Of a stretch of DNA of 64,000 nt, positions 19,992 through 59,069 are shown piece by piece. The notes under the pieces were generated by a model. That model was given only the letters and a program-made list of their open reading frames with translations, was not told the DNA's origin and did no database searches. The DNA is from Minisyncoccota bacterium. Lineage in GTDB: Bacteria; Patescibacteriota; Minisyncoccia; Phycocordibacterales; UBA918. The translations under genes and the position numbers were made by a program. The stretch covers positions 2 to 64,001 of the forward strand of contig JAWKSP010000001.1 in assembly GCA_041389025.1 (NCBI GenBank), read 5' to 3'. Within the stretch, counting starts at the first letter, position 1; every line of letters starts with the position of its first letter.

Positions 19992-20888
19992 CCCTGAATC
20001 CATAAACTCAAATAATCTTATTCAAAGCCATGATCTGATAACTCAGTAACACTCGTACATAATGAAGAGCATACCCTGATACAGAACGAGGAAAAGAAGT
20101 AACCAAGTGTAGATGCTCTTTAAGGTAATCAAACACACATTCAACTTTGGAACGTAGGTTAAGTAACCGTAGCTGCTGTGAGGTAGCGATTTTTTTCTTT
20201 TGACTTGGCCACGGTGGAGCGATAATGGCGGTACCATAATTTTCATAAACAATCCTGCTACGACACAATGTTCATTTAAAATATCAGTCATGACCTGAGC
20301 ATCGTGGATGTTAGCTAGTGTGAAAGCCATTCCACACAGTCTACCATCCAAAGCAACACTGGCATGAAGTTTAAATCCATAGTGCCAACCTTGCCAATTC
20401 TTGCCAAAATCAGCTATATTCTTAGCCACTTTATACCTATCTACTCGATGGTTCTTGCAGACCGGTAACATAGTGGAGTCTATTAGTCTGATAGCTTCGG
20501 TGGTACCAAGTAGTTGGTTTAACAGGTAATACATTTGTGGTAATGCCTTATGGCAGTGATTAACAAAGGCTGAGTATTTGGGTAATTTAAAGTCATTGTT
20601 GTGATAAACCAGAATAGTGTCATGAATATCCTTCAGGGTTTTTTGTTTAAGAACAATAGTGTTCCAAATCAATATGGTTATCACTTCAGATTCGGATAAC
20701 AAAGCCGGTCTACCGGTAACATAGGGCTTGGTATCAATCTGTTGGTCTACCCAATAATATAAATCTACTATATGATGTGAATACAAAAAGAGCATAGTAC
20801 GTTATTTATGTTGGTATATAGATATCGTACGTGCTCTTTTTGTGTTTTAAGGGTTTAATTGGGGATACTTGAGTTTATGGATTCAGGG
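19992..20888 (-). mobile_element. IS982-family insertion sequence (~0.9 kb) with 20-bp terminal inverted repeats and a 6-bp target-site duplication.
   Basis: Left IR CCCTGAATCCATAAACTCAA (19992-20011) and right IR TTGAGTTTATGGATTCAGGG (20869-20888) are perfect reverse complements. A flanking direct repeat TTTCGT lies at 19986-19991 and 20889-20894. The internal ORF has IS982 transposase motifs. Confidence 0.75.
20008..20795 (-). pseudogene. IS982-family DDE transposase, frameshifted. The 250-aa and 86-aa ORF-track entries are two frames of one gene.
   Basis: N-terminal frame has IDSTMLPVCKNHRVDRYKVAKNIADFGKNWQGWHYGFKLHASVALDGRL. C-terminal frame has VECVFDYLKEHLHLVTSFPRSVSGYALHYVRVLLSYQI. 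The frames overlap near a T7 homopolymer at about 20200-20210. Confidence 0.7.
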
Positions 20889-44305: not shown

Positions 44306-44400
44306 TAAGTGTGATATTCAAAAAACACTGAGAATTTAAGAAAAAACCAATATATAAAGATCACCCTTACCCCTTGCTCTTAATAAAAGTCATCACAATT

Positions 44401-44475
44401 TAAGTAAAGAAACGAGCGCAGCGACTATTCTGAACTTATGTCAGAATTTGTTCTGTCCTTGGGCAAATTCTGACC
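44401..44475 (+). repeat. Structured repeat family, copy A (solo unit)
   Basis: taagtaaagaaacgagcgcagcgactattctgaacttatgtCAGAATTTGttctgtccttgggCAAATTCTG. 9-bp stem with a conserved loop. Related to copies B and D. Confidence 0.65.
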
Positions 44476-47879: not shown

Positions 47880-48404
47880 TTAACTACCTAAGGCCCCCTT
47901 TTCTTTTTCTATTTTATGTCTAATATCCTTCTTTCCCAAATCATCAAAATACTTACGGGTTATTTGTTTATATAGGGATGATGCCCTTTTTCCGTCTGGA
48001 AACAATATCTTTTCCAATTTATTTTCTTCAATTAAAAAATCAATCAACATTTTGTAATCACCATCTCCTGAAACGAGAACTATTTTGTTAAATTCCTCAG
48101 CTTTATAAAGCCTTTTCATAATTGAGAAAATAATATCAGAATCTACATTTCCTTTCTTTTTTCCAAGCATAGCTGAATTATGTTCGCGAAATACAAGAAT
48201 AAAACCTGCGCTCTGGATTTCTTCATATAGCGATTCATACTTTTGTCCATCTTGTACAAAACCCAAGTAATAATATGCTTTAGCTACATGGTACTTTTTT
48301 TCTAAATAAATTCTAAACCTAGACAAATCAACCTCCCAAGCATTGTCACAATTTTTAATTCCTAAAAATAGATTTTGACCATCCACATAAGCAATATTTT
48401 CCAT
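47880..48404 (-). CDS. NYN-domain (LabA/PIN-like) protein
   Basis: IAYVDGQNLFLGIK...VLVSGDGDYKMLIDFL, typical NYN motifs. Confidence 0.6.
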   Translation of the reverse strand: MENIAYVDGQNLFLGIKNCDNAWEVDLSRFRIYLEKKYHVAKAYYYLGFVQDGQKYESLYEEIQSAGFILVFREHNSAMLGKKKGNVDSDIIFSIMKRLYKAEEFNKIVLVSGDGDYKMLIDFLIEENKLEKILFPDGKRASSLYKQITRKYFDDLGKKDIRHKIEKEKGALGS

Positions 48405-48547
48405 GTAAAAAATTATAACAAATATTATTCCTATTTATTAACCAACCCCTCCGCCACCATCGTCGTCATGTCCCCTACCCATATATATCCAAAGAGGAAC
48501 CCTTCGTACACACGGAGGGTTCCTCTTTGGAAACTTTGGAAATACTT

Positions 48548-49132
48548 TTACCCTAAGTAATATCGTTTATACTCCACACTATCCATATTCCCCACCCCGT
48601 AACATTCAGTCAGTGAAAAATGTGGAATGTTTACATCCAAAGAAAAATCCTTTAGAGAATTCGCATAATCCAATCCTTTCTGGTACCCAGCTTCATCTAA
48701 ATCAGCAAAGGCTAGCGTGATATGTGGCTTATAGTCTTCAATTCTCGGTAGCCAAACTTCAAATCCATCAGTCACCTCACTCTTTAGTAAATCAAACAAT
48801 CCCTGCAACTCATCATTCACCTCTACTTTTAAGTAGATTACATACGGGGTTATCTTTCCTTCTATCGCTCCTTTCCAATTATCCCAACCACCAAATCCTC
48901 CGGCTTTAATCGAAAAACTTTTAGGCTTATCAGCCACCTCTTTAAATAATTTATCCGCTACCAATAGCTGTTCTTCACCTAATATTATCCCAGTACCAAC
49001 AGTGAGATGCGGTAGCCAATCCACCAAACACTTTTCTGAACCGGTTAGTTTCGATAATTCCTTTTGTATACTTCTTACCTTTTTAAAGTCCTCCTCACTT
49101 AAGTAACTAACTATGGAATAATTCTTTGTCAT
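48548..49132 (-). CDS. 2H phosphoesterase superfamily protein (LigT/2'-5' RNA ligase-like)
   Basis: Two H-x-T/S-x motifs: HLTVGTG and HITLAF. Confidence 0.55.
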   Translation of the reverse strand: MTKNYSIVSYLSEEDFKKVRSIQKELSKLTGSEKCLVDWLPHLTVGTGIILGEEQLLVADKLFKEVADKPKSFSIKAGGFGGWDNWKGAIEGKITPYVIYLKVEVNDELQGLFDLLKSEVTDGFEVWLPRIEDYKPHITLAFADLDEAGYQKGLDYANSLKDFSLDVNIPHFSLTECYGVGNMDSVEYKRYYLG

Positions 49133-49755: not shown

Positions 49756-51075
49756 CTAATTACCTACCAACCCTTCTGCCACCTCGCTTGTCATATCACC
49801 TGCTCCCATAGTCACCACTACTCCGTTAGTTGGAGTGTTTTTTAGCACTTCCTCTATTGCCTCTTCTGGGCTGGATACAGCAGTCGCCTGACCCCCAGCC
49901 TTCTCAATAGCTTGTGACAATTTTTCACTGGAAACATCTGAGGTATTTTCTTCACGAGCAGCGTAAATAGGCAACAATATTACACAATCAGCCTTACTCA
50001 AAGCTTCCACAAAATCATCAAATAACTCACTGGTCCTAGAATATGTATGCGACTGAAAAACTACCGTTGTTTTATGTTTATTGTACAACTCTCTCGTACC
50101 GTTTATCGTCGCTAATATTTCAGTAGGATGATGTCCATAATCGTCATAAACTGGAACTCTTCCACCTTTCTCTCCCATAAAAGTACCTTTATACTCAAAT
50201 CGACGCCATGTACCAGAAAAATTTTCTAACGCTTGTTTTATAACTTCTTTATCCACACCAACAAATGTGGCGGCGGCGGACGCCGCCGCCGCATTTGTCT
50301 GATTATGAACTCCAGGTTGATGGAGCTTCAAGGACAAATCAATTTTATCTTTATAATCAATCACCTTAGCTGATATTTCTTTAAGTACTGGTAAAACCTT
50401 AGCGTCACTAGTATCAGCTATTACCACACCAGTCTCAGGTACCTTCAAAGCTAATTCACGAAAAGCCGACTGCACATCCGCCAAATCTTTATAATAATCA
50501 ACATGTTCAAATTCAACATTAGTAATCACCAGCACATCTGGTTGTAAAGACAAAAAATCTCGCTTATATTCACAGGCTTCCACCACCGCATACTTACTTT
50601 TTCCTGCTCGAAAATTACTACCGGTCTTCGCTCGTAAAGATCCGATAATAGCCGTTGGATCAAGTTCAGCTTGTTCTAAAATATCAGTAAGCATAGCGGT
50701 GGTGGTAGTCTTACCATGGGTACCTGCCACAGCAATAAGGTAATATTCATTAGCCACTGCTCCTAAAGCTTCAAAGTAACTAACTGACTCAATACCCAAC
50801 TCACGCGCTTTTAAAAGTTCAACGTACCCTTCACTTTTTTCATTAACCGCCATCGTATATACTACCAAATCAATATCTTTAGTAATATTTTCTGCTTGTT
50901 GCGGTGAAAGAACCTCTACTCCTTCATTAGCCAAAGCTTCCGTAATTTTAGATAACTCTCGATCAGAACCACTAACCTCCTTACCTTCGTGTAAGAAAAA
51001 ACGTGCTAGAGCCGACATCCCAATGCCTCCGACACCAATAAAATGTATTTTTTTAATTTCTTTCATATTAAACAT
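49756..51075 (-). CDS. murC: UDP-N-acetylmuramate--L-alanine ligase MurC
   Basis: KKIHFIGVGGIGMSALARFFLHEGKEVSGSD, GTHGKTTTTAM. Confidence 0.9.
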   Translation of the reverse strand: MFNMKEIKKIHFIGVGGIGMSALARFFLHEGKEVSGSDRELSKITEALANEGVEVLSPQQAENITKDIDLVVYTMAVNEKSEGYVELLKARELGIESVSYFEALGAVANEYYLIAVAGTHGKTTTTAMLTDILEQAELDPTAIIGSLRAKTGSNFRAGKSKYAVVEACEYKRDFLSLQPDVLVITNVEFEHVDYYKDLADVQSAFRELALKVPETGVVIADTSDAKVLPVLKEISAKVIDYKDKIDLSLKLHQPGVHNQTNAAAASAAATFVGVDKEVIKQALENFSGTWRRFEYKGTFMGEKGGRVPVYDDYGHHPTEILATINGTRELYNKHKTTVVFQSHTYSRTSELFDDFVEALSKADCVILLPIYAAREENTSDVSSEKLSQAIEKAGGQATAVSSPEEAIEEVLKNTPTNGVVVTMGAGDMTSEVAEGLVGN

Positions 51076-52834
51076 AATTTTCTATAAAAAATTTCAAATC
51101 CTTTTTAGTAAGAGAGGTTAAATCAAGATCAAAAACTTTGTCTAATGGTATCCAGTCAAAATCCGCTCCTTCTCTTAATTTCATTTCACTTTTTTGCATT
51201 ATGGATTTTATATAAAAGACGTTTCTATAAGTTTTCTTTTCTTCATTCAAATAATCACACAAAGGTATTACTTCAGTCTCATCTAACATTACTGTCAACT
51301 CTTCTTTTATTTCACGCAGAAAAGTTTCTAATGGACTTTCATTAAATTCACTTAGACCACCAAAAAAAGCCCACTTGTTTGGATTTATTTCTGTATCACC
51401 GTCTCTCTTGTGAAGTAAGACAGATTTAGTTTCTTCGTTATATAAAAAACCTCCAGACCAGAAATTGTCTTCTTTTTTATATTCTTCTAACAAGTCCAAA
51501 AACTCATCGTTCCTTTCGTACTCATTTTTATATTGAGCAAAAGAAGAGAAAGCTGGAGAAAATAATATAATATCACCATTTTTAGCAACCTCTCTAGCTT
51601 TTACAAAAGCTTGTTTTAAACCTTCTGTAACTACTATATTTACATTGCCATTCATCTCGTCAACCAATTTATCGGTACCATTACCCGGAGTTAGAAAAAC
51701 CTGTTTACAATGTTCCTTTATCGCCTCAGTCAATGAAATTAAGTCGATATTTTTATCTGCCCCACCTGCTATCAAAATTATATTTTTGTTACCAATATCC
51801 AAAGCTTCCAAAGCTACTTTAGTAGCTTGTGGTGTAGTAGCGTTGTTGTCATTATATATCCGAACATTATCTATGGTCTTTACTAGTTGTAGTCTACCCT
51901 CTACTCCCGAAAAACTAGTTAGTCCTTCAAAAATTTCTTCATCACTTAAAGACAAAGACTTTAGAGCTTCATAAGCCAGAGCTGCATTAAGGCGATTATG
52001 CTCACCTGGCATAGCCAACAAGCAATCCTCGGGAATCACCGAAGAGTCGGTTAATCTTATTTCTTGTTTTAAATGTAAATCAGGAAAAATTTTTTTTATC
52101 CACTCAAACACTTCCGGGGTTGTAATCAGAGTTCCGCTTTCATCTTGATGTAAAAATATTTGCGCCTTATCTTTAAAATATAATTCCATCGCTTCTTCTT
52201 TTGTCTTGCCCCCAACGCCATAATAATTTAAATGGTCCTCCATAAAGTTAGTAAAAACTGCTACTTGTGGCGAAAGCCCCGACCAACCAAAACCTTGCAA
52301 TTGCCAAGAATCTAACTCCATCACACAAAGCGAATCTTCCTTAACTTCATTAAGTAACTTTAAATTTGATACTCCTCGTACATTACCACCAAGGAGTATT
52401 TTTTCACCGGTAACAACCGAGAGTACGTGATGAACCATGCCTGTCACGGTACTTTTACCGCGAGTGCCGGTCACACCTATAATGGGGATTTTTGAAAGTT
52501 CGGCAAATAAAGAGGCGGATTGTTTTAGAGGCACGCCAGCTTCGCTGGCGTGCCTTAAATACTCAGAATCCTGAGGAACACCAGCTGACACCAAAACTAA
52601 ATCAACATTTTCAAAATCTTCTTTCTCATGCTTTCCCAAGACAAACTTAATATTCGGTAAATCTTTTAGTTTTGAAACAGAAACTGCCAATTCTTTTTCA
52701 GACTTTAAATCGGTCACAATTACCTCCTTTGCTCCCGATTCAGCAATAAAAAGAGCGTCTCCAACACCACGCCCCAAGAGACCCAATCCCATCACAGTCA
52801 CTTTTTTTCCTTTAAAATAATCTTGAAAATTCAT
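51068..52834 (-). CDS. murD: UDP-N-acetylmuramoylalanine--D-glutamate ligase MurD fused to a C-terminal NUDIX hydrolase domain
   Basis: N-terminus KVTVMGLGLLGRGVGDALFIAESGA and GTRGKSTVTGM (Mur ligase). Residues ~450-588 carry a Nudix box GGLSEFNESPLETFLREIKEELTV. 8-nt overlap with murC. Confidence 0.85.
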   Translation of the reverse strand: MNFQDYFKGKKVTVMGLGLLGRGVGDALFIAESGAKEVIVTDLKSEKELAVSVSKLKDLPNIKFVLGKHEKEDFENVDLVLVSAGVPQDSEYLRHASEAGVPLKQSASLFAELSKIPIIGVTGTRGKSTVTGMVHHVLSVVTGEKILLGGNVRGVSNLKLLNEVKEDSLCVMELDSWQLQGFGWSGLSPQVAVFTNFMEDHLNYYGVGGKTKEEAMELYFKDKAQIFLHQDESGTLITTPEVFEWIKKIFPDLHLKQEIRLTDSSVIPEDCLLAMPGEHNRLNAALAYEALKSLSLSDEEIFEGLTSFSGVEGRLQLVKTIDNVRIYNDNNATTPQATKVALEALDIGNKNIILIAGGADKNIDLISLTEAIKEHCKQVFLTPGNGTDKLVDEMNGNVNIVVTEGLKQAFVKAREVAKNGDIILFSPAFSSFAQYKNEYERNDEFLDLLEEYKKEDNFWSGGFLYNEETKSVLLHKRDGDTEINPNKWAFFGGLSEFNESPLETFLREIKEELTVMLDETEVIPLCDYLNEEKKTYRNVFYIKSIMQKSEMKLREGADFDWIPLDKVFDLDLTSLTKKDLKFFIENYV

Positions 52835-52900: not shown

Positions 52901-53485
52901 ATGTTTAGGATAACCAAAAAAATTATACATTTTATTTTCATACTGTTAGCGATCAGTGGTTTCCTTTTGATGTCATTTTATCTAACTCAGTTTGTTATAA
53001 ATAATAGTGAAACCCAAATATTTGTACAAGATTATGGATATGTTGGGATCTTTATCTTAAGCTTTATCGCTGGTTTAAATTTATTTATACCAGTCCCAGC
53101 TGCTACTTTCACCTCTGTTTTTACCGCCGGCGGTATCTCCTTACCAATAATTATAACTATTCTTGTTATCGGGACTATGTGCGCTAATTTTGTTGCTTAT
53201 GGACTAGGTCGACTAGGTCACCGTTTCACTGAAAGTCATTATCCTAAACTTGAAGAAAAGATAAATAAATTATATTTAGAAAAAAGAAAGTGGCTTCCTT
53301 ATTTTGTTTTTTCTTTTGCCGCTTTTGTACCCTTCCCCGATGAAATATACATAATTCCACTTGGACTAATGGGGGTAAAAATAAAAGAATTTATTATTCC
53401 CTTAACCTTAGGCACCATCACTTTCCAGACCCTAACTGCTTTAGGTTTTCAAAACATATTCCAAACTTTAATCAGTATGAATTAA
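52901..53485 (+). CDS. Hypothetical 5-6 TM membrane protein
   Basis: 194 aa, hydrophobic. Confidence 0.4.
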   Translation: MFRITKKIIHFIFILLAISGFLLMSFYLTQFVINNSETQIFVQDYGYVGIFILSFIAGLNLFIPVPAATFTSVFTAGGISLPIIITILVIGTMCANFVAYGLGRLGHRFTESHYPKLEEKINKLYLEKRKWLPYFVFSFAAFVPFPDEIYIIPLGLMGVKIKEFIIPLTLGTITFQTLTALGFQNIFQTLISMN

Positions 53486-53535
53486 ATGGTGGAAAACAGT
53501 CACTATAAGAAAAGTACTTGTTATAATTTAGTTGT

Positions 53536-53724
53536 ATGCAACCAAAGAAACTTGAGGAATATCGTTTTTTTCAACCAATTGCTTGGATAATTTGTTTATC
53601 TTTTGCTGGCTTTGTAGGCTTGCTATCATTACAACTACAGACAGTTGTAGACGACCTACAAGCCTCAAATCTGAACATAGAGGAACGCCTCGATAAACTG
53701 GAAAAAGAAATTTATTCAAATTAA
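53536..53724 (+). CDS. Possible small single-TM protein
   Basis: 62 aa with one TM (IAWIICLSFAGFVGLLSL), followed by a strong terminator. The overlapping minus-strand 63-aa ORF is less plausible. Confidence 0.3.
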   Translation: MQPKKLEEYRFFQPIAWIICLSFAGFVGLLSLQLQTVVDDLQASNLNIEERLDKLEKEIYSN

Positions 53725-53732
53725 TTCATTGA

Positions 53733-53770
53733 AAAACACACCGGTCACTTTAGTGACCGGTGTGTTTTTC
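53733..53770 (+). terminator. Rho-independent terminator
   Basis: aaaaacacaccggtcac-ttta-gtgaccggtgtgttttt. Confidence 0.7.
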
Positions 53771-53800
53771 AATTTGTTCGGTCAAAATTTAGTTAAATAC

Positions 53801-53820
53801 TTTGTCCGCGCTCTAGGATT
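53801..53820 (-). repeat. 20-nt direct repeat of the tRNA-Ile 3' end (att-like partial duplicate)
   Basis: tttgtccgcgctctaggatt matches ttagtccgcgctctaggatt at 54170-54189 (19/20). Confidence 0.6.
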
Positions 53821-53896
53821 AAATGAAGAAAGGAGTATAACGACTATTCTGAATTTATGTCCCAATTTTGTCCTTTCCTAGACAAAATTGCTGGAC
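53821..53896 (+). repeat. Structured repeat family, copy B (type 1)
   Basis: aaatgaagaaaggagtataacgactattctgaatttatgtcCCAATTTTGtcctttcctagaCAAAATTGctgga. Confidence 0.65.
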
Positions 53897-53952
53897 GAAC
53901 AGACTCTAAAATTACATAAAACTTTTGAGATATTTTGTCGTTTGCGTAATTT

Positions 53953-54030
53953 TAAATGAGCAAATGATCAAAGACCATATTGCGAATTTAGTTCCGAATT
54001 CTCCCCTTCCTAGGGCGAATTCTTGGAACA
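53953..54030 (+). repeat. Structured repeat family, copy C (type 2)
   Basis: taaatgagcaaatgatcaaagaccatattgcgaatttagttccGAATTCtccccttcctagggcGAATTCttgg. Confidence 0.6.
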
Positions 54031-54173
54031 GGTTAAGTTCTCACACGGTTTTCAAATAATCCAGCCAACCCTCAAGTATCGTAAACATCGACTTGTTCCT
54101 CCCTATGGTCGGAAACGGAAAAAATGCTACACGCATTTTTTAGCTCGCGCGGACGCAAAAGTCCTCCCCTTAG

Positions 54174-54247
54174 TCCGCGCTCTAGGATTCGAACCTAGGA
54201 CCTTTCGAGTATCAGTCGAATGCTCTAGCCAACTGAGCTAAGCGCGG
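54174..54247 (-). tRNA. tRNA-Ile (anticodon GAU). CCA not encoded.
   Basis: Manual fold: acceptor CCGCGCU/AGCGCGG, D-arm GCUC-AGUUGGCUA-GAGC, anticodon arm UUCGA-CUGAUAC-UCGAA, variable loop AGGUC, T-arm CUAGG-UUCGAAU-CCUAG, discriminator A. Confidence 0.85.
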
Positions 54248-54391
54248 ACTAAGGGGAGGACAAACTAAAACCTCTCTTTAAGTGACCGCTACTATAGCAG
54301 AAAACAAAGAAAAATGTAAGAGTCTCGCATATAAAAATCAAAGGCCTAAAGCATTATAGCAATAGGCCCTTTTGCAAGATAGAAAGATAAA

Positions 54392-54598
54392 TCAATATTT
54401 TCTACCCACCTTGCAATAGTCAACATAATTTTTTTTATTTTTGCCGAGTAATAACAAAACACCCGGCAAGATTAAAAACAAACCTGACAGCTTTATCAAC
54501 AAAAGCTCTAAGTTTGTTAGTTTGTTTGCTGGATCGTCTCCTAATAAAATGAGACAACCCAAAATAAAAAGTACCCCAACTGCGATTTTCATTTTCAT
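54392..54598 (-). CDS. Possible small 2-TM membrane protein
   Basis: 68 aa, hydrophobic. Confidence 0.3.
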   Translation of the reverse strand: MKMKIAVGVLFILGCLILLGDDPANKLTNLELLLIKLSGLFLILPGVLLLLGKNKKNYVDYCKVGRKY

Positions 54599-54705
54599 AT
54601 CAATCTCCAGTATTTAAAGGTGTATACATTAAATCATATTTAATATGTATTGTCAAATGTAAATAGCCTTATTTTGCACGCACTTCATGGGGTATAATTA
54701 TACTA

Positions 54706-55071
54706 ATGAAACAATACAAAATACTGCTAGCTCTGCTTGCTTTGCCACAATTAGCCTTTGCTCAAGCCTCCCTGCAAACTTTCATCCCAAACCTAGTTAA
54801 ATTTGTCAGTAATGTTTTAATTCCTTTCCTTTTTGCGATTGCCTTTTTTATTTTTGTTTTTGCTGCTTTTAAATACTTTGTTTTAGAAAGTGCCAATGAA
54901 GAAGGTCGCGAGAAAGCCAAAAACCTTGCCCTTTACACCATACTAGCCTTCCTTTTCTTAATAATATTTTGGGGATTAATAAATGTTATCGCTAATTCTG
55001 TTGGTCTACAAGGAACCGACCAGCCCTGTCCTGATTATATAATGACAATAGATCCAACCAAATGCCCATAA
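54706..55071 (+). CDS. Small secreted/membrane protein with signal peptide plus two TM helices (VirB2/TrbC-pilin-like topology, speculative)
   Basis: MKQYKILLALLALPQLAFAQA signal sequence, two hydrophobic helices, C-terminal CPDY...CP. Confidence 0.4.
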   Translation: MKQYKILLALLALPQLAFAQASLQTFIPNLVKFVSNVLIPFLFAIAFFIFVFAAFKYFVLESANEEGREKAKNLALYTILAFLFLIIFWGLINVIANSVGLQGTDQPCPDYIMTIDPTKCP

Positions 55072-55101
55072 AAAATATCCCAGTCATATTGACTGGGACT
55101 A

Positions 55102-55647
55102 TCATGTAGGTAAGTCTAGCTCTTCGCTCAACTCTTTGTATACCACTTGATTATTTTTATCTCTTTTACCTAAATAAACGTCCCATACCAACTTCTCTTC
55201 TTTAAGTATTCGAGGAAGAAAAATTCTATCCACCGGTAATAAGTTTAAATTCAAAATATCATCCGGCGCAAAAAAATGTGGTGTTCGCATTTCTTTTTTG
55301 CCTTGAGGTATTCCCTTGTACTTGATAAGAGTGAAGAAATAGACAGTCATGTCAGCTTGGCTATCCTCACTATCAGGCCAAAAGAAATTTATTTTTGCTA
55401 CCAGACACAAATCCTCTTCATACGCCCTAACCCCCGACTCCTCGAATAGTTCTCTTATAGCAGTTTGCAACAAACTTTCATTTGGTAACTTTTTACCACC
55501 ATAACCGTTCCAGACATTTGCGCTGTTTTTAAGCTGGATTCCTTGCTTGTGGATATTACTTACCTTCTGCGCCAAACAAACTCTTCCTCTTTCATCCAAT
55601 AAATAAACTACCGTGGCCAATTCTGTCTTAGCATTCATTGTATTCAT
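55102..55647 (-). CDS. NUDIX hydrolase
   Basis: Nudix box GGKKLPNESLLQTAIRELFEESGV. Confidence 0.7.
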   Translation of the reverse strand: MNTMNAKTELATVVYLLDERGRVCLAQKVSNIHKQGIQLKNSANVWNGYGGKKLPNESLLQTAIRELFEESGVRAYEEDLCLVAKINFFWPDSEDSQADMTVYFFTLIKYKGIPQGKKEMRTPHFFAPDDILNLNLLPVDRIFLPRILKEEKLVWDVYLGKRDKNNQVVYKELSEELDLPT

Positions 55648-55704
55648 AGCAAAATCCTCCTTCAGACTCTTCTTTGCTTAGTATACTTTTATACGACAAT
55701 AAAG

Positions 55705-55740
55705 AAAAGGCACCCTGCTTCGCGTGGTGCCTTTTCTTTT
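55705..55740 (-). terminator. Terminator hairpin just downstream of the 16S rRNA 3' end
   Basis: aaaaggcacc-ctgcttcgcgt-ggtgcctttt. On the minus strand it is followed by ttttctttatt. Confidence 0.55.
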
Positions 55741-57199
55741 AGACAAAACTCTCTTTTGTCTTATCCTTAAAGGTCCGGTCTTTCCCTGGGGTCTGATACC
55801 ATTTCAGAGAATTGAGTATCATCTCTCGTTGCGTGCTCAATTGATACACACAACATCGACCAATTAGCTGTCATTGCAGTTCTGTTACCAGAGTGCGACA
55901 ACGTGTCCAATTGGAATTAATCCACGACCAGCTTCCGCTAGCCGTGCCTTGTTACGACTTAGTCCTTGTTATCGAGTTTACCGTCGGCCCACGCTAGGTG
56001 GGACTTCGGGCACTCCCGACTCCCCTGACTTGACGGGCGGTGAGTACAAGGCTCGGGAACGTATTCACCGCGGCGTTGCTGATCCGCGATTACTAGCGAT
56101 TCCGGCTTCATGAGGGCGAGTTGCAGCCCTCAATCCGAACTGAGGATGGTTTTATTAGGATTTGCTCCACATTACTGTATTGCGTCCCGTTGTACTACCC
56201 ATTGTATCACGTGTGCAGCCCAAGGCATCAAGGGACATGCTGACCTGGCGTCATCCTCACCTTCCTCTCCCGTGAGGGAGCAGTCTCGTCTGACACTTAT
56301 AACAGACAACGAGGGTTGCGTTCGTTTCCCCACTTAAGGGAACAGCTCAAGCCACGAACTGACGACGGCCATGCATCACCTGCCATACACCCTCGAAGGC
56401 TTCTTCGGTTTCCCGAAGCGTGCAGTATGGTTTCTAGCCTTGGTAAGGTTCTTCGCTTAGCTACGAATTAAGCCACATGATCCACCGCTTGTGCGAGCCC
56501 CCGTCTATTCCTTTGAGTTTTAAGCTTGCGCTCGTACTACCCAGGCGGTCTGTTTAACGCGTTAGCTTCGCCACTAAGAGGGTCGATACTCCTAATAGCC
56601 AACAGACAGCGTTTAGGGCGTGGACTACTCGGGTATCTAATCCGATTCGCTACCCACGCTTTCGTGCCTCAGCGTCAAGAATGTGCCAGTAAGCTGCCTT
56701 CGCATTTGGTATTCCCCATGATATCAACGGATTTCACCCCTACACCATGAGTTCTGCTTACCTCTCACACCTTCTAGTTATACCGTTTCGAATGCGGCTG
56801 TAAGGTTGAGCCCTACAATTTAACATCCGACTAATATAACCGCCTACGCACCCTTTACGCCCAGTAAATCCGGATAATGCTCGGGGCCTCTGTATTACCG
56901 CTCCTGCTGGCACAGAGTTGGGAGCCCCTTATTCATGAGGTAACGTCAATAAACTTCCTCCCTCATAAAAGGTGTTTACGTCCCGAAGGACTTCATCCAC
57001 CACGCGGCGTCGCTCCGTCAGGCTTTCGCCCATTGCGGAAGATTCTCGACTGCAGCCTCCCGTAGGAGTATGGACCGTGTCGCAGTTCCATCGGTGGGGG
57101 TCAGGCTCTCACCTCCCCTAGCCGTCGTAGCCTTGGTAAGCCGTTACCTTACCAACAAGCTGATAGCCCGCAGGCCGTTCCAAGAGCGATAAATCTTTA

Positions 57200-57513
57200 C
57201 CCAGCCCTACTTTTTATCTTCAAGCCAACTGGTCTCAATTCTTTTTTTGAGACCTTGTATCGCACTACCATGTTGCTTAAGTTTGTTTTCACGAACTCGT
57301 GCATCACGTTCATTACGATAAGCTTCTGCGTATATCAAAATCCATTTACCTCGCTCTCTCCTAGTAGCTTTATTACTATTAGAATTATGAGAATTTAAAC
57401 GATTTCCTAAATTCTTAGTGAAACCAATATAAATCTCTTTTGTAAGTGAGTGTTGAATCAGATAAACAATAAACATTACCTTGATTGTATCAAAGATAAA
57501 AAGTAGAGCTGGG
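57200..57513 (-). other. Intervening sequence / intron-like insertion in the 16S helix-10 (V2) region, closed by a 21-bp perfect helix
   Basis: Stem strands CCCAGCTCTACTTTTTATCTT (57493-57513, rRNA sense) and AAGATAAAAAGTAGGGCTGGG (57200-57220) pair over 21 bp. They enclose 272 nt that carry an ORF. Confidence 0.7.
57207..57476 (-). CDS. GIY-YIG nuclease-domain protein (homing-endonuclease-like) encoded inside the 16S insertion
   Basis: MFIVYLIQHSLTKEIYIGFTKNLGNRLNSHN fits GIY-x10-YIG...R...H...N. AAGG lies 3 nt upstream of the ATG. Start is taken at M16 of the track ORF 57207..57521. Confidence 0.65.
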   Translation of the reverse strand: MFIVYLIQHSLTKEIYIGFTKNLGNRLNSHNSNSNKATRRERGKWILIYAEAYRNERDARVRENKLKQHGSAIQGLKKRIETSWLEDKK

Positions 57514-57789
57514 ACCATCAAGTATTATTCCGACTTTCGCCGGGTTATCCCTGACTCTTGGGTACGTACCTACGTGTTCCTACCTCGTCTGCCATGAATC
57601 TAAATTCATTCGACTTGCATGCCTCATCCACGCCGCCAGCATTCATCCTGAGCTAGGATCAAACTCTAATTGAAGACAGGTACTGAAAGAAAAAATCTTT
57701 CTGTGTATCTGCGTCTTCTGAGCAATGCGCTTGTACTATTGCGCGCTCGAAGAAGACGATTTACCTAAAGGATAAGACAAAAGAAAGCT

Positions 57790-57865
57790 AAATGAAACAA
57801 GGAGTGAAACTCCTATGTTGAATTTACGTCTCAATTTTTCCTTTCCTAGAAAAAATTGCTAGACG
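57790..57865 (+). repeat. Structured repeat family, copy D (type 1), in the 16S leader
   Basis: aaatgaaacaaggagtgaaactcctatgttgaatttacgtctCAATTTTTcctttcctagAAAAATTGctaga. Confidence 0.65.
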
Positions 57866-57900
57866 CAAACACATTTAGAAATTTTTGTCTTAAAAATTGT

Positions 57901-57978
57901 GCTGATGCATTAAATGAACAAATGTCCGAAGGACATATTGTGAATTTACTTCTCAATTTTTTCCTTTCCTAGAAAAAA
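57901..57978 (+). repeat. Structured repeat family, copy E (type 2), in the 16S leader
   Basis: taaatgaacaaatgtccgaaggacatattgtgaatttacttctCAATTTTTTcctttcctagAAAAAATTGctaga. Confidence 0.6.
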
Positions 57979-58174
57979 TTGCTAGAAGGCTTATCACAAA
58001 TATTCATTCATTTAAAATGCTTACGTCATACATAATGTTGGGCATTATGTATGAATATTTAATTTTCAAATTTCTATGTTCCGTATTGGTGGTAATTCTT
58101 TTTTTCTATTAACCTTACTTTTTAGCAAAGTGCACAAAAGCAAAGTTACTTACCTCCAACGAACAGTGCTGAGC

Positions 58175-58202
58175 ATTATACAGATATAGAAGAATTATGC
58201 AA
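58175..58202 (-). promoter_or_regulatory. Candidate sigma70-type promoter for the 16S rRNA transcript (TTGCAT-N16-TATAAT on minus strand)
   Basis: Minus-strand sequence cTTGCATaattcttctatatctgTATAATgctc. It lies ~500 nt upstream of the 16S 5' end and downstream of the terminators of the preceding gene. Confidence 0.45.
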
Positions 58203-58221
58203 GCACCTAAAGTGAAAAAGA

Positions 58222-58257
58222 GTAAAAGAAAAAGCCACCGAGTATAACCGGTGGCTA
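58222..58257 (-). terminator. Terminator hairpin (second of two downstream of the lipoprotein LDT gene)
   Basis: agccaccg-agtataac-cggtggct followed on the minus strand by ttttctttt. Confidence 0.45.
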
Positions 58258-58260
58258 AAT

Positions 58261-58300
58261 GTACTTGTGTCGGACGAGCAAGCTCGTCCGACACAAGTAC
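58261..58300 (-). terminator. Long perfect hairpin (19-bp stem) immediately downstream of the LDT gene
   Basis: gtacttgtgtcggacgagc-aa-gctcgtccgacacaagtac. Confidence 0.55.
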
Positions 58301-58328
58301 TACCCCTTTACGAAGTGATCTTATAATT

Positions 58329-59069
58329 TTATTTATAAACAATCACTTCTATATCTTCCGGTTCCACATCCGGTCCTAACAATTCTACCAAATTTTTAAT
58401 GGCTCTATTTTGGAGCCTGGTACAACCAAAAGTTTCAATTTCCCAGAAACGACCGTTGTCAGCATACCCTTCCGTACCGTGAATACGATGTAGCTCCCAA
58501 CCTTTAACATCCCACTTGATTTCAAATTTTACTTCACCCATCGCATTAAGTGGATGACCATAAGGTAAACAACCGAGTGGTAAATGAGCCATAACACGAC
58601 GAATGTTTGATGTCGGACACCAAGTCGGCATCGTGTCTATTTTGGTAACAATTCCTCGCACTACATCTTTTGGTAAAGTATCTGGAGAAGGCGTTACTAC
58701 AGCAAAGCCGATGACAGGCTCATACCCATCAAGTCCACGCCTATAATACGCCAATTCTTTGGTGGTGTAGTTTACCGTTATCACATGCTTTTTGTTAGAC
58801 CAAAAAGACAATTCTTCCTTTGGTACAAACTGACCACCGTAAATTTTTCTTTCACCATTCGGTAAAAGTTCTACAGTAAAACGGCCATACTTTTCCATCG
58901 GGTTTTCAGTTTTTTTTACAGTCCTTACCTCTTTAACTTCTGGTCGGTAAGGTTTTGTCTCAATCGGAGTATCTGCAGAACCAAAATGCATCGTTCCACA
59001 GCCAATTAAAGAAATTATAATTATTAAAAAACAAACTATGCGCCAACAAAGCACAAGAATTTTTTTCAC
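58329..59069 (-). CDS. Lipoprotein L,D-transpeptidase (YkuD domain)
   Basis: Lipobox LIGCG. Catalytic region HRIHGTEGYADNGRFWEIETFGCTRLQNRAI (H-x-n-[ST]-x-GC-x-R). Confidence 0.65.
   Translation of the reverse strand: MKKILVLCWRIVCFLIIIISLIGCGTMHFGSADTPIETKPYRPEVKEVRTVKKTENPMEKYGRFTVELLPNGERKIYGGQFVPKEELSFWSNKKHVITVNYTTKELAYYRRGLDGYEPVIGFAVVTPSPDTLPKDVVRGIVTKIDTMPTWCPTSNIRRVMAHLPLGCLPYGHPLNAMGEVKFEIKWDVKGWELHRIHGTEGYADNGRFWEIETFGCTRLQNRAIKNLVELLGPDVEPEDIEVIVYK

Follow-up and report, generated by a model that had tools for sequence, protein, structure and literature searches.

Why should a bacterial tRNA gene be bordered by flanks that are exact reverse complements of one another, and does the pairing that they allow belong to the DNA or to the RNA? 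The question is raised by a tRNA-Ile(GAU) gene in the 64-kb stretch of DNA analyzed here (the window), which comes from a CPR bacterium with a very small genome, annotated as a 'Candidatus Paceibacterota bacterium' MAG. On the plus strand the gene is bordered by two 13-mers, TCCTCCCCTTAGT (54162-54174) and ACTAAGGGGAGGA (54248-54260), which are exact reverse complements; both were found at the coordinates given in an initial annotation of this DNA, and their complementarity was verified in the sequence. No other copy of the 13-mers with fewer than two mismatches exists in the 64-kb window. The initial annotation had claimed a perfect 20-bp helix with 13 bp of flank pairing. The helix is indeed perfect, but it is longer than stated, since a 14th pair (G-C, 54161/54261) brings the flank complementarity to 14 bp (54161-54174 / 54248-54261), which together with the 7-bp acceptor stem forms a continuous 21-bp helix that is 100% complementary and without interruption (inverted-repeat search, I2).

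The tRNA itself lies on the minus strand, where ARAGORN delimits it at 54173-54247 and Rfam at 54174-54247. It forms a cloverleaf with anticodon, and its 72.2 bits against an Rfam gathering score of 29 identify it as a canonical bacterial elongator tRNA; it has a C1-G72 pair and CCA is not encoded. Position 54174 is the discriminator A73, so that the first pair of the extension is U(-1):A73. In the minus-strand transcript, a leader ending in GUCCUCCCCUUAGU is followed by the tRNA (CCGCGCU...AGCGCGG, A73), by CUAAGGGGAGGAC and finally by UUUUG. When the region is folded, as had been proposed, the helix does form: a 141-nt precursor (54140-54280, minus strand) has a predicted energy of -66.4 kcal/mol (z = -5.99, none of 200 shuffles as stable), with the 21-bp helix present in both the minimum-free-energy and the centroid folds. 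The window sequence over 53826-55946 is reproduced without any difference in an independent assembly (Logan SRR28338157, contig L001), and the helix locus is therefore not an assembly artefact. The features of the locus are collected in Table 1; those that the initial annotation had missed are the strand of the tRNA, the 14th pair, the U-run past the 3' arm, for which a terminator role is suggested, and a decayed tRNA-Ile copy situated just downstream.

Table 1. Features of the tRNA-Ile locus and of the neighbouring 16S rRNA region, in minus-strand order.
Feature	Position	Strand	Evidence
16S leader-trailer processing stem, arms 57768-57787 / 55749-55768 (20 nt, 95% complementary)	55749-57787	-	inverted repeat
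16S rRNA gene with 293-nt insertion	55910-57674	-	Rfam 1361.5 bits and alignment
21-bp helix at base of 16S insertion	57200-57220 / 57493-57513	-	inverted repeat I3/I11
Hairpin with U-run behind 16S stem	55701-55739	-	inverted repeat I21; sequence
Promoter: -35 CTTACA (54315-54320), 18-nt spacer, extended -10 TGcTATAGT (54291-54299)	54291-54320	-	consensus scan
5' arm (leader strand) GUCCUCCCCUUAGU, pairs with 54161-54174	54248-54261	-	sequence, fold, inverted repeat, covariation
tRNA-Ile(GAU), 73 nt plus discriminator A73 (54174)	54174-54247	-	ARAGORN; Rfam RF00005 72.2 bits
3' arm (trailer strand) ACUAAGGGGAGGAC, first base is the discriminator	54161-54174	-	sequence, inverted repeat
U-run UUUUG, directly past G/C-rich helix end	54156-54160	-	sequence; terminator-like geometry
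Decayed second tRNA-Ile copy	53804-54154	-	direct repeat D5, D1 family; homologous modules in 20 other loci
Decayed copy: 5' fragment GUCCGCGCG.AGCU	54142-54154	-	
Decayed copy: ins1, three-hairpin structured insertion	54073-54141	-	
Decayed copy: D-loop fragment GGGUUGGCUGGA	54060-54071	-	
Decayed copy: D1 repeats	53949-54026, 53815-53895	-	
Decayed copy: relic of 3' arm	53940-53953	-	
Decayed copy: T-arm/acceptor 3' fragment AUCCUAGAGCGCGGAC	53804-53819	-	
Perfect 22-bp hairpin, strong bidirectional terminator closing the region	53728-53773	.	inverted repeat, terminator scan

Flank pairing in other genomes was compared by counting pairs in register outwards from -1:73. This count replaced the unanchored duplex energy of 40-nt flanks, which gave no discrimination, as G+C-rich genomes yield strong chance duplexes. 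A background set was gathered with a broad tRNA-Ile(GAU) pattern on genome contigs and comprised at least 120 loci across Bacteria. The in-register extension was 0-3 bp in 275 of 279 measurable tRNAs, chiefly from at least 120 diverse bacterial loci, with 0 bp in 141 tRNAs, 1 bp in 118, 2 bp in 14 and 3 bp in two among the matches listed; among these matches, extensions of 8-14 bp occurred only in the window (counted twice, contig L001 being a repeat of it) and in two other CPR loci. A Kaiserbacteria MAG in this set has a 14-bp extension of different sequence, and a MAG designated 'Patescibacteria group' has 8-9 contiguous bp, or about 16 bp with one mismatch. A further Paceibacteria MAG (L086) carries an imperfect helix with 3 contiguous pairs but 12/14 in register. 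Other CPR lineages (Saccharibacteria, Yonathbacteria and others) were without the extension among the matches listed in the background set. The neighbouring tRNA-Leu(CAG) genes likewise have no extension in 19 of 20 cases. Synteny via the neighbouring NUDIX protein led to relatives of ∼50% identity in a different context, where no orthologous tRNA loci were found.

Relatives were instead collected with an exact 43-nt tRNA-body pattern on metagenome contigs, which gave 99 loci with 67 distinct flank pairs, and 56 distinct cassettes with a shared tRNA body were placed in an ungapped alignment (A2). At least 12 of the 14 pairs can form in 47 of the 56 cassettes, and all of them in 18, while the arm sequences fall into eight unrelated clusters. 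Double (both-side) compensatory changes were detected at 13 of 16 tested extension pairs; the covariation score is 0.294, compared with 0.096 ± 0.007 for shuffled alignments (0/500 reach it) and 0.04-0.11 for slid controls, and RNAalifold predicts the extension independently. Past pair 14, pairing falls to about 40-50%, and the extension is therefore defined as 14 bp. The initial annotation had named absence of the flank complementarity from orthologous loci as the finding that would reduce it to a chance palindrome. The opposite was found in related Paceibacteria, where the helix is conserved with abundant compensatory changes. Judged by these comparisons, the helix is a conserved, lineage-specific RNA feature and not a chance palindrome. 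The suggestion that it might represent an archaeal-type bulge-helix-bulge site was likewise not borne out, as the helix is uninterrupted and lacks the two 3-nt bulges around a 4-bp helix; for practical purposes both a chance palindrome and a bulge-helix-bulge site can be dismissed.

The substitutions also indicate the level at which the pairing acts. Helix-bearing sequences contain 41 G·U/U·G cells against seven A·C/C·A cells, counts that exceed the number of independent events because the relatives, picked by an exact tRNA-body match, form a fairly close clade. This bias points to an RNA helix on the tRNA sense strand and not to a DNA palindrome. It bears directly on the proposal that the arms serve a mobile tRNA cassette as terminal inverted repeats or as a site of recombination, any RNA pairing being incidental. 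Such a proposal would accommodate the differing positions that the cassette occupies relative to decayed tRNA-Ile copies and the 21-nt direct repeat of the tRNA 3' end (53800-53820 / 54169-54189, 369 bp apart; D5). However, DNA symmetry cannot explain the preference for G·U over A·C, the arm sequences covary instead of being conserved as the terminal inverted repeats of a transposon or MITE would be, and a target-site duplication was not seen. We consider a DNA-level role very unlikely.

The surroundings of the helix suggest an involvement in transcription. A consensus scan identified a sigma-70-type promoter (9/12 matches, with TG) from which transcription is predicted to start at ∼54284, giving a leader of ∼35 nt. 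The promoter motif CCCTTACATTTT...TGCTATAGT is conserved in 38 related loci, where it precedes the cassette by 24-58 nt. At the other end, GGGGAGGAC is followed by UUUUG, so that the G/C-rich stem and U-run of an intrinsic terminator are both present; the short loop (about 3-8 nt) is not, since the arms are 59 nt apart with the tRNA cloverleaf between them. The U-run behind the helix in the window consists of four U only, and a terminator consensus scan does not call the helix and U-run as a terminator.

Two architectures can be distinguished among the relatives. In 38 loci, the window included, the cassette is promoter-proximal, and in 18 it is nested within a disrupted tRNA-Ile-like copy, the promoter being 110-202 nt upstream. 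Of the 38 promoter-proximal cassettes, 36 have a run of three or more U, preceded by a G-rich block, at the distal end of the 3' arm or close to it, compared with 3 of the 18 nested ones for a U-run of this length at or near the end of the arm. The extension has on average 13.1 of 14 pairs in the promoter-proximal group and 11.6 of 14 in the nested group. Cassettes that lack the U-run often have a canonical terminator 0-11 nt past the arm, whereas promoter-proximal cassettes rarely have one within 150 nt (at least 6 of the 38), these canonical-terminator counts being lower bounds. In the subtype to which the window belongs (with L160, L194, L213, and L132) the U-run stands directly behind the complete helix. 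In the main subtype, covariation extends to pairs distal to the U-run (columns 3:103 and 4:102).

The extension and U-run could accordingly be thought to form an intrinsic terminator and nothing else, with the tRNA as a giant loop and the duplex resolved by RNase P, exonucleases, or helicases without any dsRNA-specific cut. The near restriction of the G-run and U-run to promoter-proximal cassettes, the small number of these with a separate canonical terminator, the frequent adjacency of such a terminator where the U-run is lacking, and the position of the U-run behind the whole helix in the window's subtype are all in keeping with this. A terminator alone would not, however, explain why nested cassettes without any U-run retain the helix or why pairs beyond the U-run in the main subtype covary; its loop would be far outside the canonical size, and the paired leader should block RNase P. 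On balance we think it unlikely that the helix is a terminator only. That the helix and U-run end transcription in stand-alone genes, with the trailer zipping onto the emerging leader, is what we infer as one part of a broader role.

A second indication of function comes from the 16S rRNA gene, which lies 1.66 kb upstream of the tRNA-Ile gene on the same strand. Apart from the tRNA-Ile helix, the 16S gene and its insertion are flanked by the only long-range helices in the 64-kb window that reach 20 bp or more with a complementarity of 95% or more. Read along the minus strand, the region begins with two D1 repeats (∼70 nt, two hairpins) and continues with the 5' arm of the 16S stem, the 16S gene, and the 3' arm of the stem; then follow the U-run hairpin, which probably ends the 16S transcript ahead of the NUDIX gene, the NUDIX gene itself, a T4SS-pilin-like gene on the other strand, and a small ORF; and the order closes with the promoter, the helix-flanked tRNA-Ile, its decayed copy, and the 22-bp terminator (53728-53773). 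Neither a 23S nor a 5S gene was found in the 64-kb window. The tRNA is therefore not part of a linked rRNA operon, as shown by the 16S stem and U-run hairpin, the genes in between, its own promoter and the lack of a 23S gene in the window, and it does not qualify as the spacer tRNA of a linked 16S-tRNA-23S operon. An origin by capture from an rRNA-spacer context, which the initial annotation had offered as an alternative, is thus only loosely right: the 16S gene upstream on the same strand agrees with it, but a U-run hairpin and protein genes intervene, the promoter is the tRNA's own and is conserved, and no 23S gene follows. The tRNA-Ile is a classical spacer species that here forms a separate transcription unit beside an unlinked 16S gene.

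The tRNA-Ile helix is akin to the leader-trailer stems of stable-RNA precursors. The nearest comparison is with the rRNA stems that carry the RNase III sites flanking 16S and 23S, in which the 5' and 3' flanks likewise pair over a long range and place ∼20 bp of dsRNA around a stable RNA, as in the window's own 16S stem (20 bp) and the 21-bp helix at the base of the 16S insertion. Unlike these stems, the tRNA-Ile helix encloses a single tRNA, is coaxial with the acceptor stem with the discriminator included, and belongs to a transcription unit with its own promoter. At least ∼20 bp of near-continuous dsRNA from 5' and 3' flanks and compensatory change at the RNA level in relatives, as expected of a processing stem, are both found here, and the reading of the helix as such a stem in the initial annotation is plausible. 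A length of ∼21 bp corresponds to roughly two helical turns, the minimum usually quoted for RNase III. No RNase III gene (rnc) was found within the 64-kb window; CPR bacteria are reported to retain rnc (PMC12641178).

Our preferred reading, to which we give about an even chance, is that the helix combines a leader-trailer clamp, a terminator stem, and a dsRNA (RNase III-type) processing stem. Transcription would begin at the gene's own extended -10 promoter ∼35 nt upstream, and the emerging trailer would zip onto the leader, so that the distal G/C-rich end of the helix and the UUUU make it also the stem of an intrinsic terminator. The released precursor would have both ends held in about two turns of dsRNA, which a dsRNA endonuclease (RNase III) may then cut, as for the 16S precursor encoded nearby, leaving RNase P, 3' trimming, and CCA addition to complete the tRNA. 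Termination, RNase III cleavage, and the order of the steps are all putative in this scheme. The clamp would make the tRNA an autonomous folding and excision unit amid tRNA-Ile-derived fragments and small structured inserts. Leader pairing that lengthens the acceptor stem inhibits bacterial RNase P (PMC9433436), and sets of pre-tRNAs appear to evolve away from stable extensions (PMC12439589). The model therefore requires an extra, hypothetical opening step, as RNase P should be inhibited by a leader that is paired throughout.

The fragments in question are seen most clearly in the decayed copy, whose module of 5' fragment and ins1 recurs in 20 other loci, with hairpin stems that covary around a conserved loop, CGAUGUUUACGA. 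A second type of element, ins2, is ∼95 nt long and has three helices, and occupies the anticodon and T loops of such copies in relatives; of its 29 predicted pairs, 22 show compensatory changes. A search with an HMM of this element recovered 51 copies, all of them from loci of related Paceibacteria and lying a median 196 nt from the intact tRNA-Ile; 38 share the orientation of the tRNA and 13 are inverted relative to it. The window and 0.8 Mb of sequence from other bacteria yielded no copy. In several relatives (L208, L152, L086, L167, and L153) an intact cassette of helix and tRNA is carried by an ins2-type element, at the tip of its long stem, within a disrupted copy. With respect to decayed copies, three positions of the cassette are seen: close to the promoter, in the region of the D-loop, and, within the anticodon loop, at the tip of an inserted element.

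Identification of the inserts as group I introns or other ribozymes was rejected for want of Rfam support: no intron or ribozyme family was matched at E ≤1 in window positions 53000-58500, at E ≤0.1 in five related loci, or at E ≤10 in L214 3900-4760. The intron reading is weakened further by the failure of excision to restore a canonical tRNA (U8, U36, and G57 are lost) and by the occurrence of inserts in both orientations. We regard the inserts as small structured repeats that are probably mobile at the DNA level, and the interrupted tRNA-Ile copies as pseudogenes.

Competition from such fragments could suggest that the helix is a folding and stability clamp without any role in nuclease recognition, one that keeps the tRNA in register, shields its ends from RNase J and PNPase amid competing tRNA-Ile-like fragments, and is opened passively or by a helicase. 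The downstream fragment 54142-54154 can pair with the 3' acceptor strand of the tRNA, and 20 or more loci have fragments like it; the helix is specific to tRNA-Ile; and CPR bacteria are reported to retain rnj and pnp (PMC12641178). Against this, loci without a decayed copy (e.g., L022, L141, L155, and L194) keep the full helix, and the constant ∼14 bp with a sharp boundary suggest a measured substrate instead of generic stability; a role confined to stability seems to us rather improbable.

The combined clamp, terminator, and processing stem that we prefer can be taken a step further, if only tentatively. The helix might act as the adaptor of a self-contained tRNA cassette, through which an essential tRNA survives in a locus repeatedly invaded by small structured mobile elements: a nested tRNA would be freed from a long transcript by dsRNA cleavage, and in stand-alone genes the same helix would double as the terminator, with the tRNA as its loop. 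We hold this extended version to be possible but doubtful. If it is true, the nested cassettes would represent a way in which bacteria make a tRNA from a 'gene within its pseudogene'.

Several known systems share parts of this arrangement. The Bacillus subtilis scRNA (SRP RNA) is a small stable RNA matured from a precursor whose stem is cut on both, opposite sides by Bs-RNase III (PMC1935012); unlike the present case it is not a tRNA and poses no conflict with the need of RNase P for a single-stranded leader. Short extensions of pre-tRNAs, such as G-1:C73 of tRNA-His or the pairing of leaders with 3' RCCA, also join position -1 and upstream bases to position 73 and downstream ones, but the known cases span 1-4 bp and slow or shift RNase P cleavage (PMC9433436), whereas the 14 bp of tRNA-Ile are positively conserved. 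Stable G-C or C-G pairs immediately upstream of the cleavage site are lacking in Aquifex pre-tRNAs (PMC12439589). Rho-independent terminators of monocistronic tRNA genes, of which Escherichia coli leuX (PMC2811032) is an example, combine a G/C-rich stem with a U-run and are removed during maturation; the canonical terminator of a tRNA gene is, however, a separate short-loop hairpin located 3' of the tRNA, whereas in tRNA-Ile the leader provides one strand of the stem and the tRNA lies in the 'loop'.

Archaea offer a further parallel in the bulge-helix-bulge helices, split-tRNA leader pairing, and multi-intron tRNAs studied by the Kanai laboratory (summarized in PMC10714607), which include long helices formed by tRNA or rRNA flanks and tRNA genes interrupted at the D-, anticodon-, and T-loops by short mobile inserts. 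The present system differs in belonging to a bacterium and in the lack of bulge-helix-bulge geometry; moreover, its interrupted copies give no canonical tRNA and its inserts occur in both orientations. [quoted passage not shown]

In bacteria, selection generally disfavours pre-tRNAs that pair stably upstream of the RNase P site, and here a 14-bp extension is positively conserved. It implies either an extra maturation step, by a dsRNA cut or by unwinding before RNase P, or an undescribed leader-trailer design of terminator. For the fields of tRNA processing and CPR biology, the helix offers a concrete RNA-processing substrate in bacteria whose ribonuclease set is reduced, and the locus illustrates the fate of the classical spacer tRNA-Ile once the rRNA genes have become unlinked. 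Small structured inserts of three families occur at tRNA and rRNA loci, and together with the nested cassettes they suggest that these genomes contain a mobile or repetitive element of an unexplored kind.

Two other candidate features of the region were set aside. The 21-nt direct repeat could be taken for an integrase att site, but the ∼350-bp interval consists of the decayed tRNA copy and repeats and contains no island. A Shine-Dalgarno reading of AAGGGGAGGA was rejected, the apparent 'SD' being a helix arm, as was a 15-aa ORF at 54087 whose start falls inside the conserved loop CGAUGUUUACGA of a covarying hairpin. Since the ins1 stems covary around this loop, the strong 'SD' and the 15-codon ORF are spurious.

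The tRNA-Ile of the window opens with a C1-G72 pair (54247 / 54175), which is probably unusual among bacterial elongator tRNAs. In an ungapped alignment of 56 distinct cassettes (the tRNA together with its leader-trailer helix arms) from relatives that share the tRNA-Ile body, exactly half carry C1-G72 and the other half G1-C72. Most cassettes have C at position 74 despite CCA not being encoded, and this base is paired as G(-2):C74 in 47 of the 56. The few relatives that do encode CCA (L058, L165, and L204, with ACCA after the acceptor stem) all lack the leader-trailer helix, and in its place have a small hairpin inside the leader, located 4-5 nt upstream of the tRNA.

A second, decayed copy of tRNA-Ile that has been broken up by structured inserts was also found in the window (see table). 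By our own reading of the relatives, the 5′ fragment of the decayed copy tends to match the intact tRNA in its G1/C1 variant (roughly 17 of 21 loci), and this sequence correspondence suggests either gene conversion or pairing of the fragment with the 3′ acceptor strand. Among relatives, copies of tRNA-Ile and tRNA-Leu carry, inserted in their anticodon and T loops, an ∼95-nt element, here termed ins2-type, which occurs in both orientations and consists of three helices with invariant CUUACAG, UCUUGC, and UCAC motifs; it matched no Rfam family. An intact tRNA-Ile lies within a few hundred nucleotides of nearly all 51 copies, and the tip of the long stem sometimes bears the intact tRNA cassette itself. 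A different repeat, D1 (∼70 nt), is present within the decayed copy of the window as well as upstream of the 16S rRNA gene and at the end of a methylase gene, and homologues were found in several related loci. It contains two covarying hairpins, the loop of the first being CUAGGAAAGG, and has a boxA-like end, UGUUCAUUUA.

Coordinates of rRNA, tRNA, and repeat features in the window and, where a locus is named, in relatives
Feature	Position	Strand	Remarks
16S rRNA gene	55910-57674	minus	
16S leader-trailer stem, then hairpin with U-run	57768-57787 and 55701-55768		20-bp stem
Basal helix of 16S insertion	57200-57220 / 57493-57513	minus	21 bp, 95% complementary
Decayed second tRNA-Ile copy	53804-54154	minus	
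D1 upstream of 16S	57907-57986, 57785-57862	minus	n = 2
D1 inside decayed tRNA-Ile copy	53949-54026, 53815-53895	minus	n = 2
D1 at 3′ end of methylase gene	44399-44469	minus	n = 1
ins2-type element, L214	4185-4531	plus	
ins2-type element, L208	3911-4463		Also in L163, L175, L179

The rRNA genes are unlinked, since neither 23S nor 5S is found within the 64-kb window; tRNA-Ile located 0.6-2.4 kb downstream of 16S, without 23S, is likewise seen in related CPR loci. The 16S rRNA of the window is interrupted after approximately model position 188 by a 293-nt insertion, and in the insertion region (57200-57513) neither an ORF nor an Rfam intron match was detected. The 515 region of this 16S rRNA reads CAGCAGGAGCGGUAAUAC, where the Rfam consensus has the usual CAGCAGCCGCGGUAAUAC.

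Some 5-6 kb from the tRNA, a gene for an NYN-domain protein (putative RNase fold) adjoins one for a LigT / 2′-5′ RNA ligase-like phosphoesterase (47880-49132, minus strand), and the pair could possibly function in RNA processing or repair. A stand-alone NUDIX gene (55102-55647) is situated between 16S and the tRNA, and another NUDIX domain forms the C-terminus of a 588-aa fusion with a MurD-like ligase (51068-52834, minus strand). The window also contains an insertion sequence (19992-20888), in which 38-nt inverted repeats (79% complementary) flank an ORF (20043-20795) for a DDE transposase (PF13612 and PF01609).
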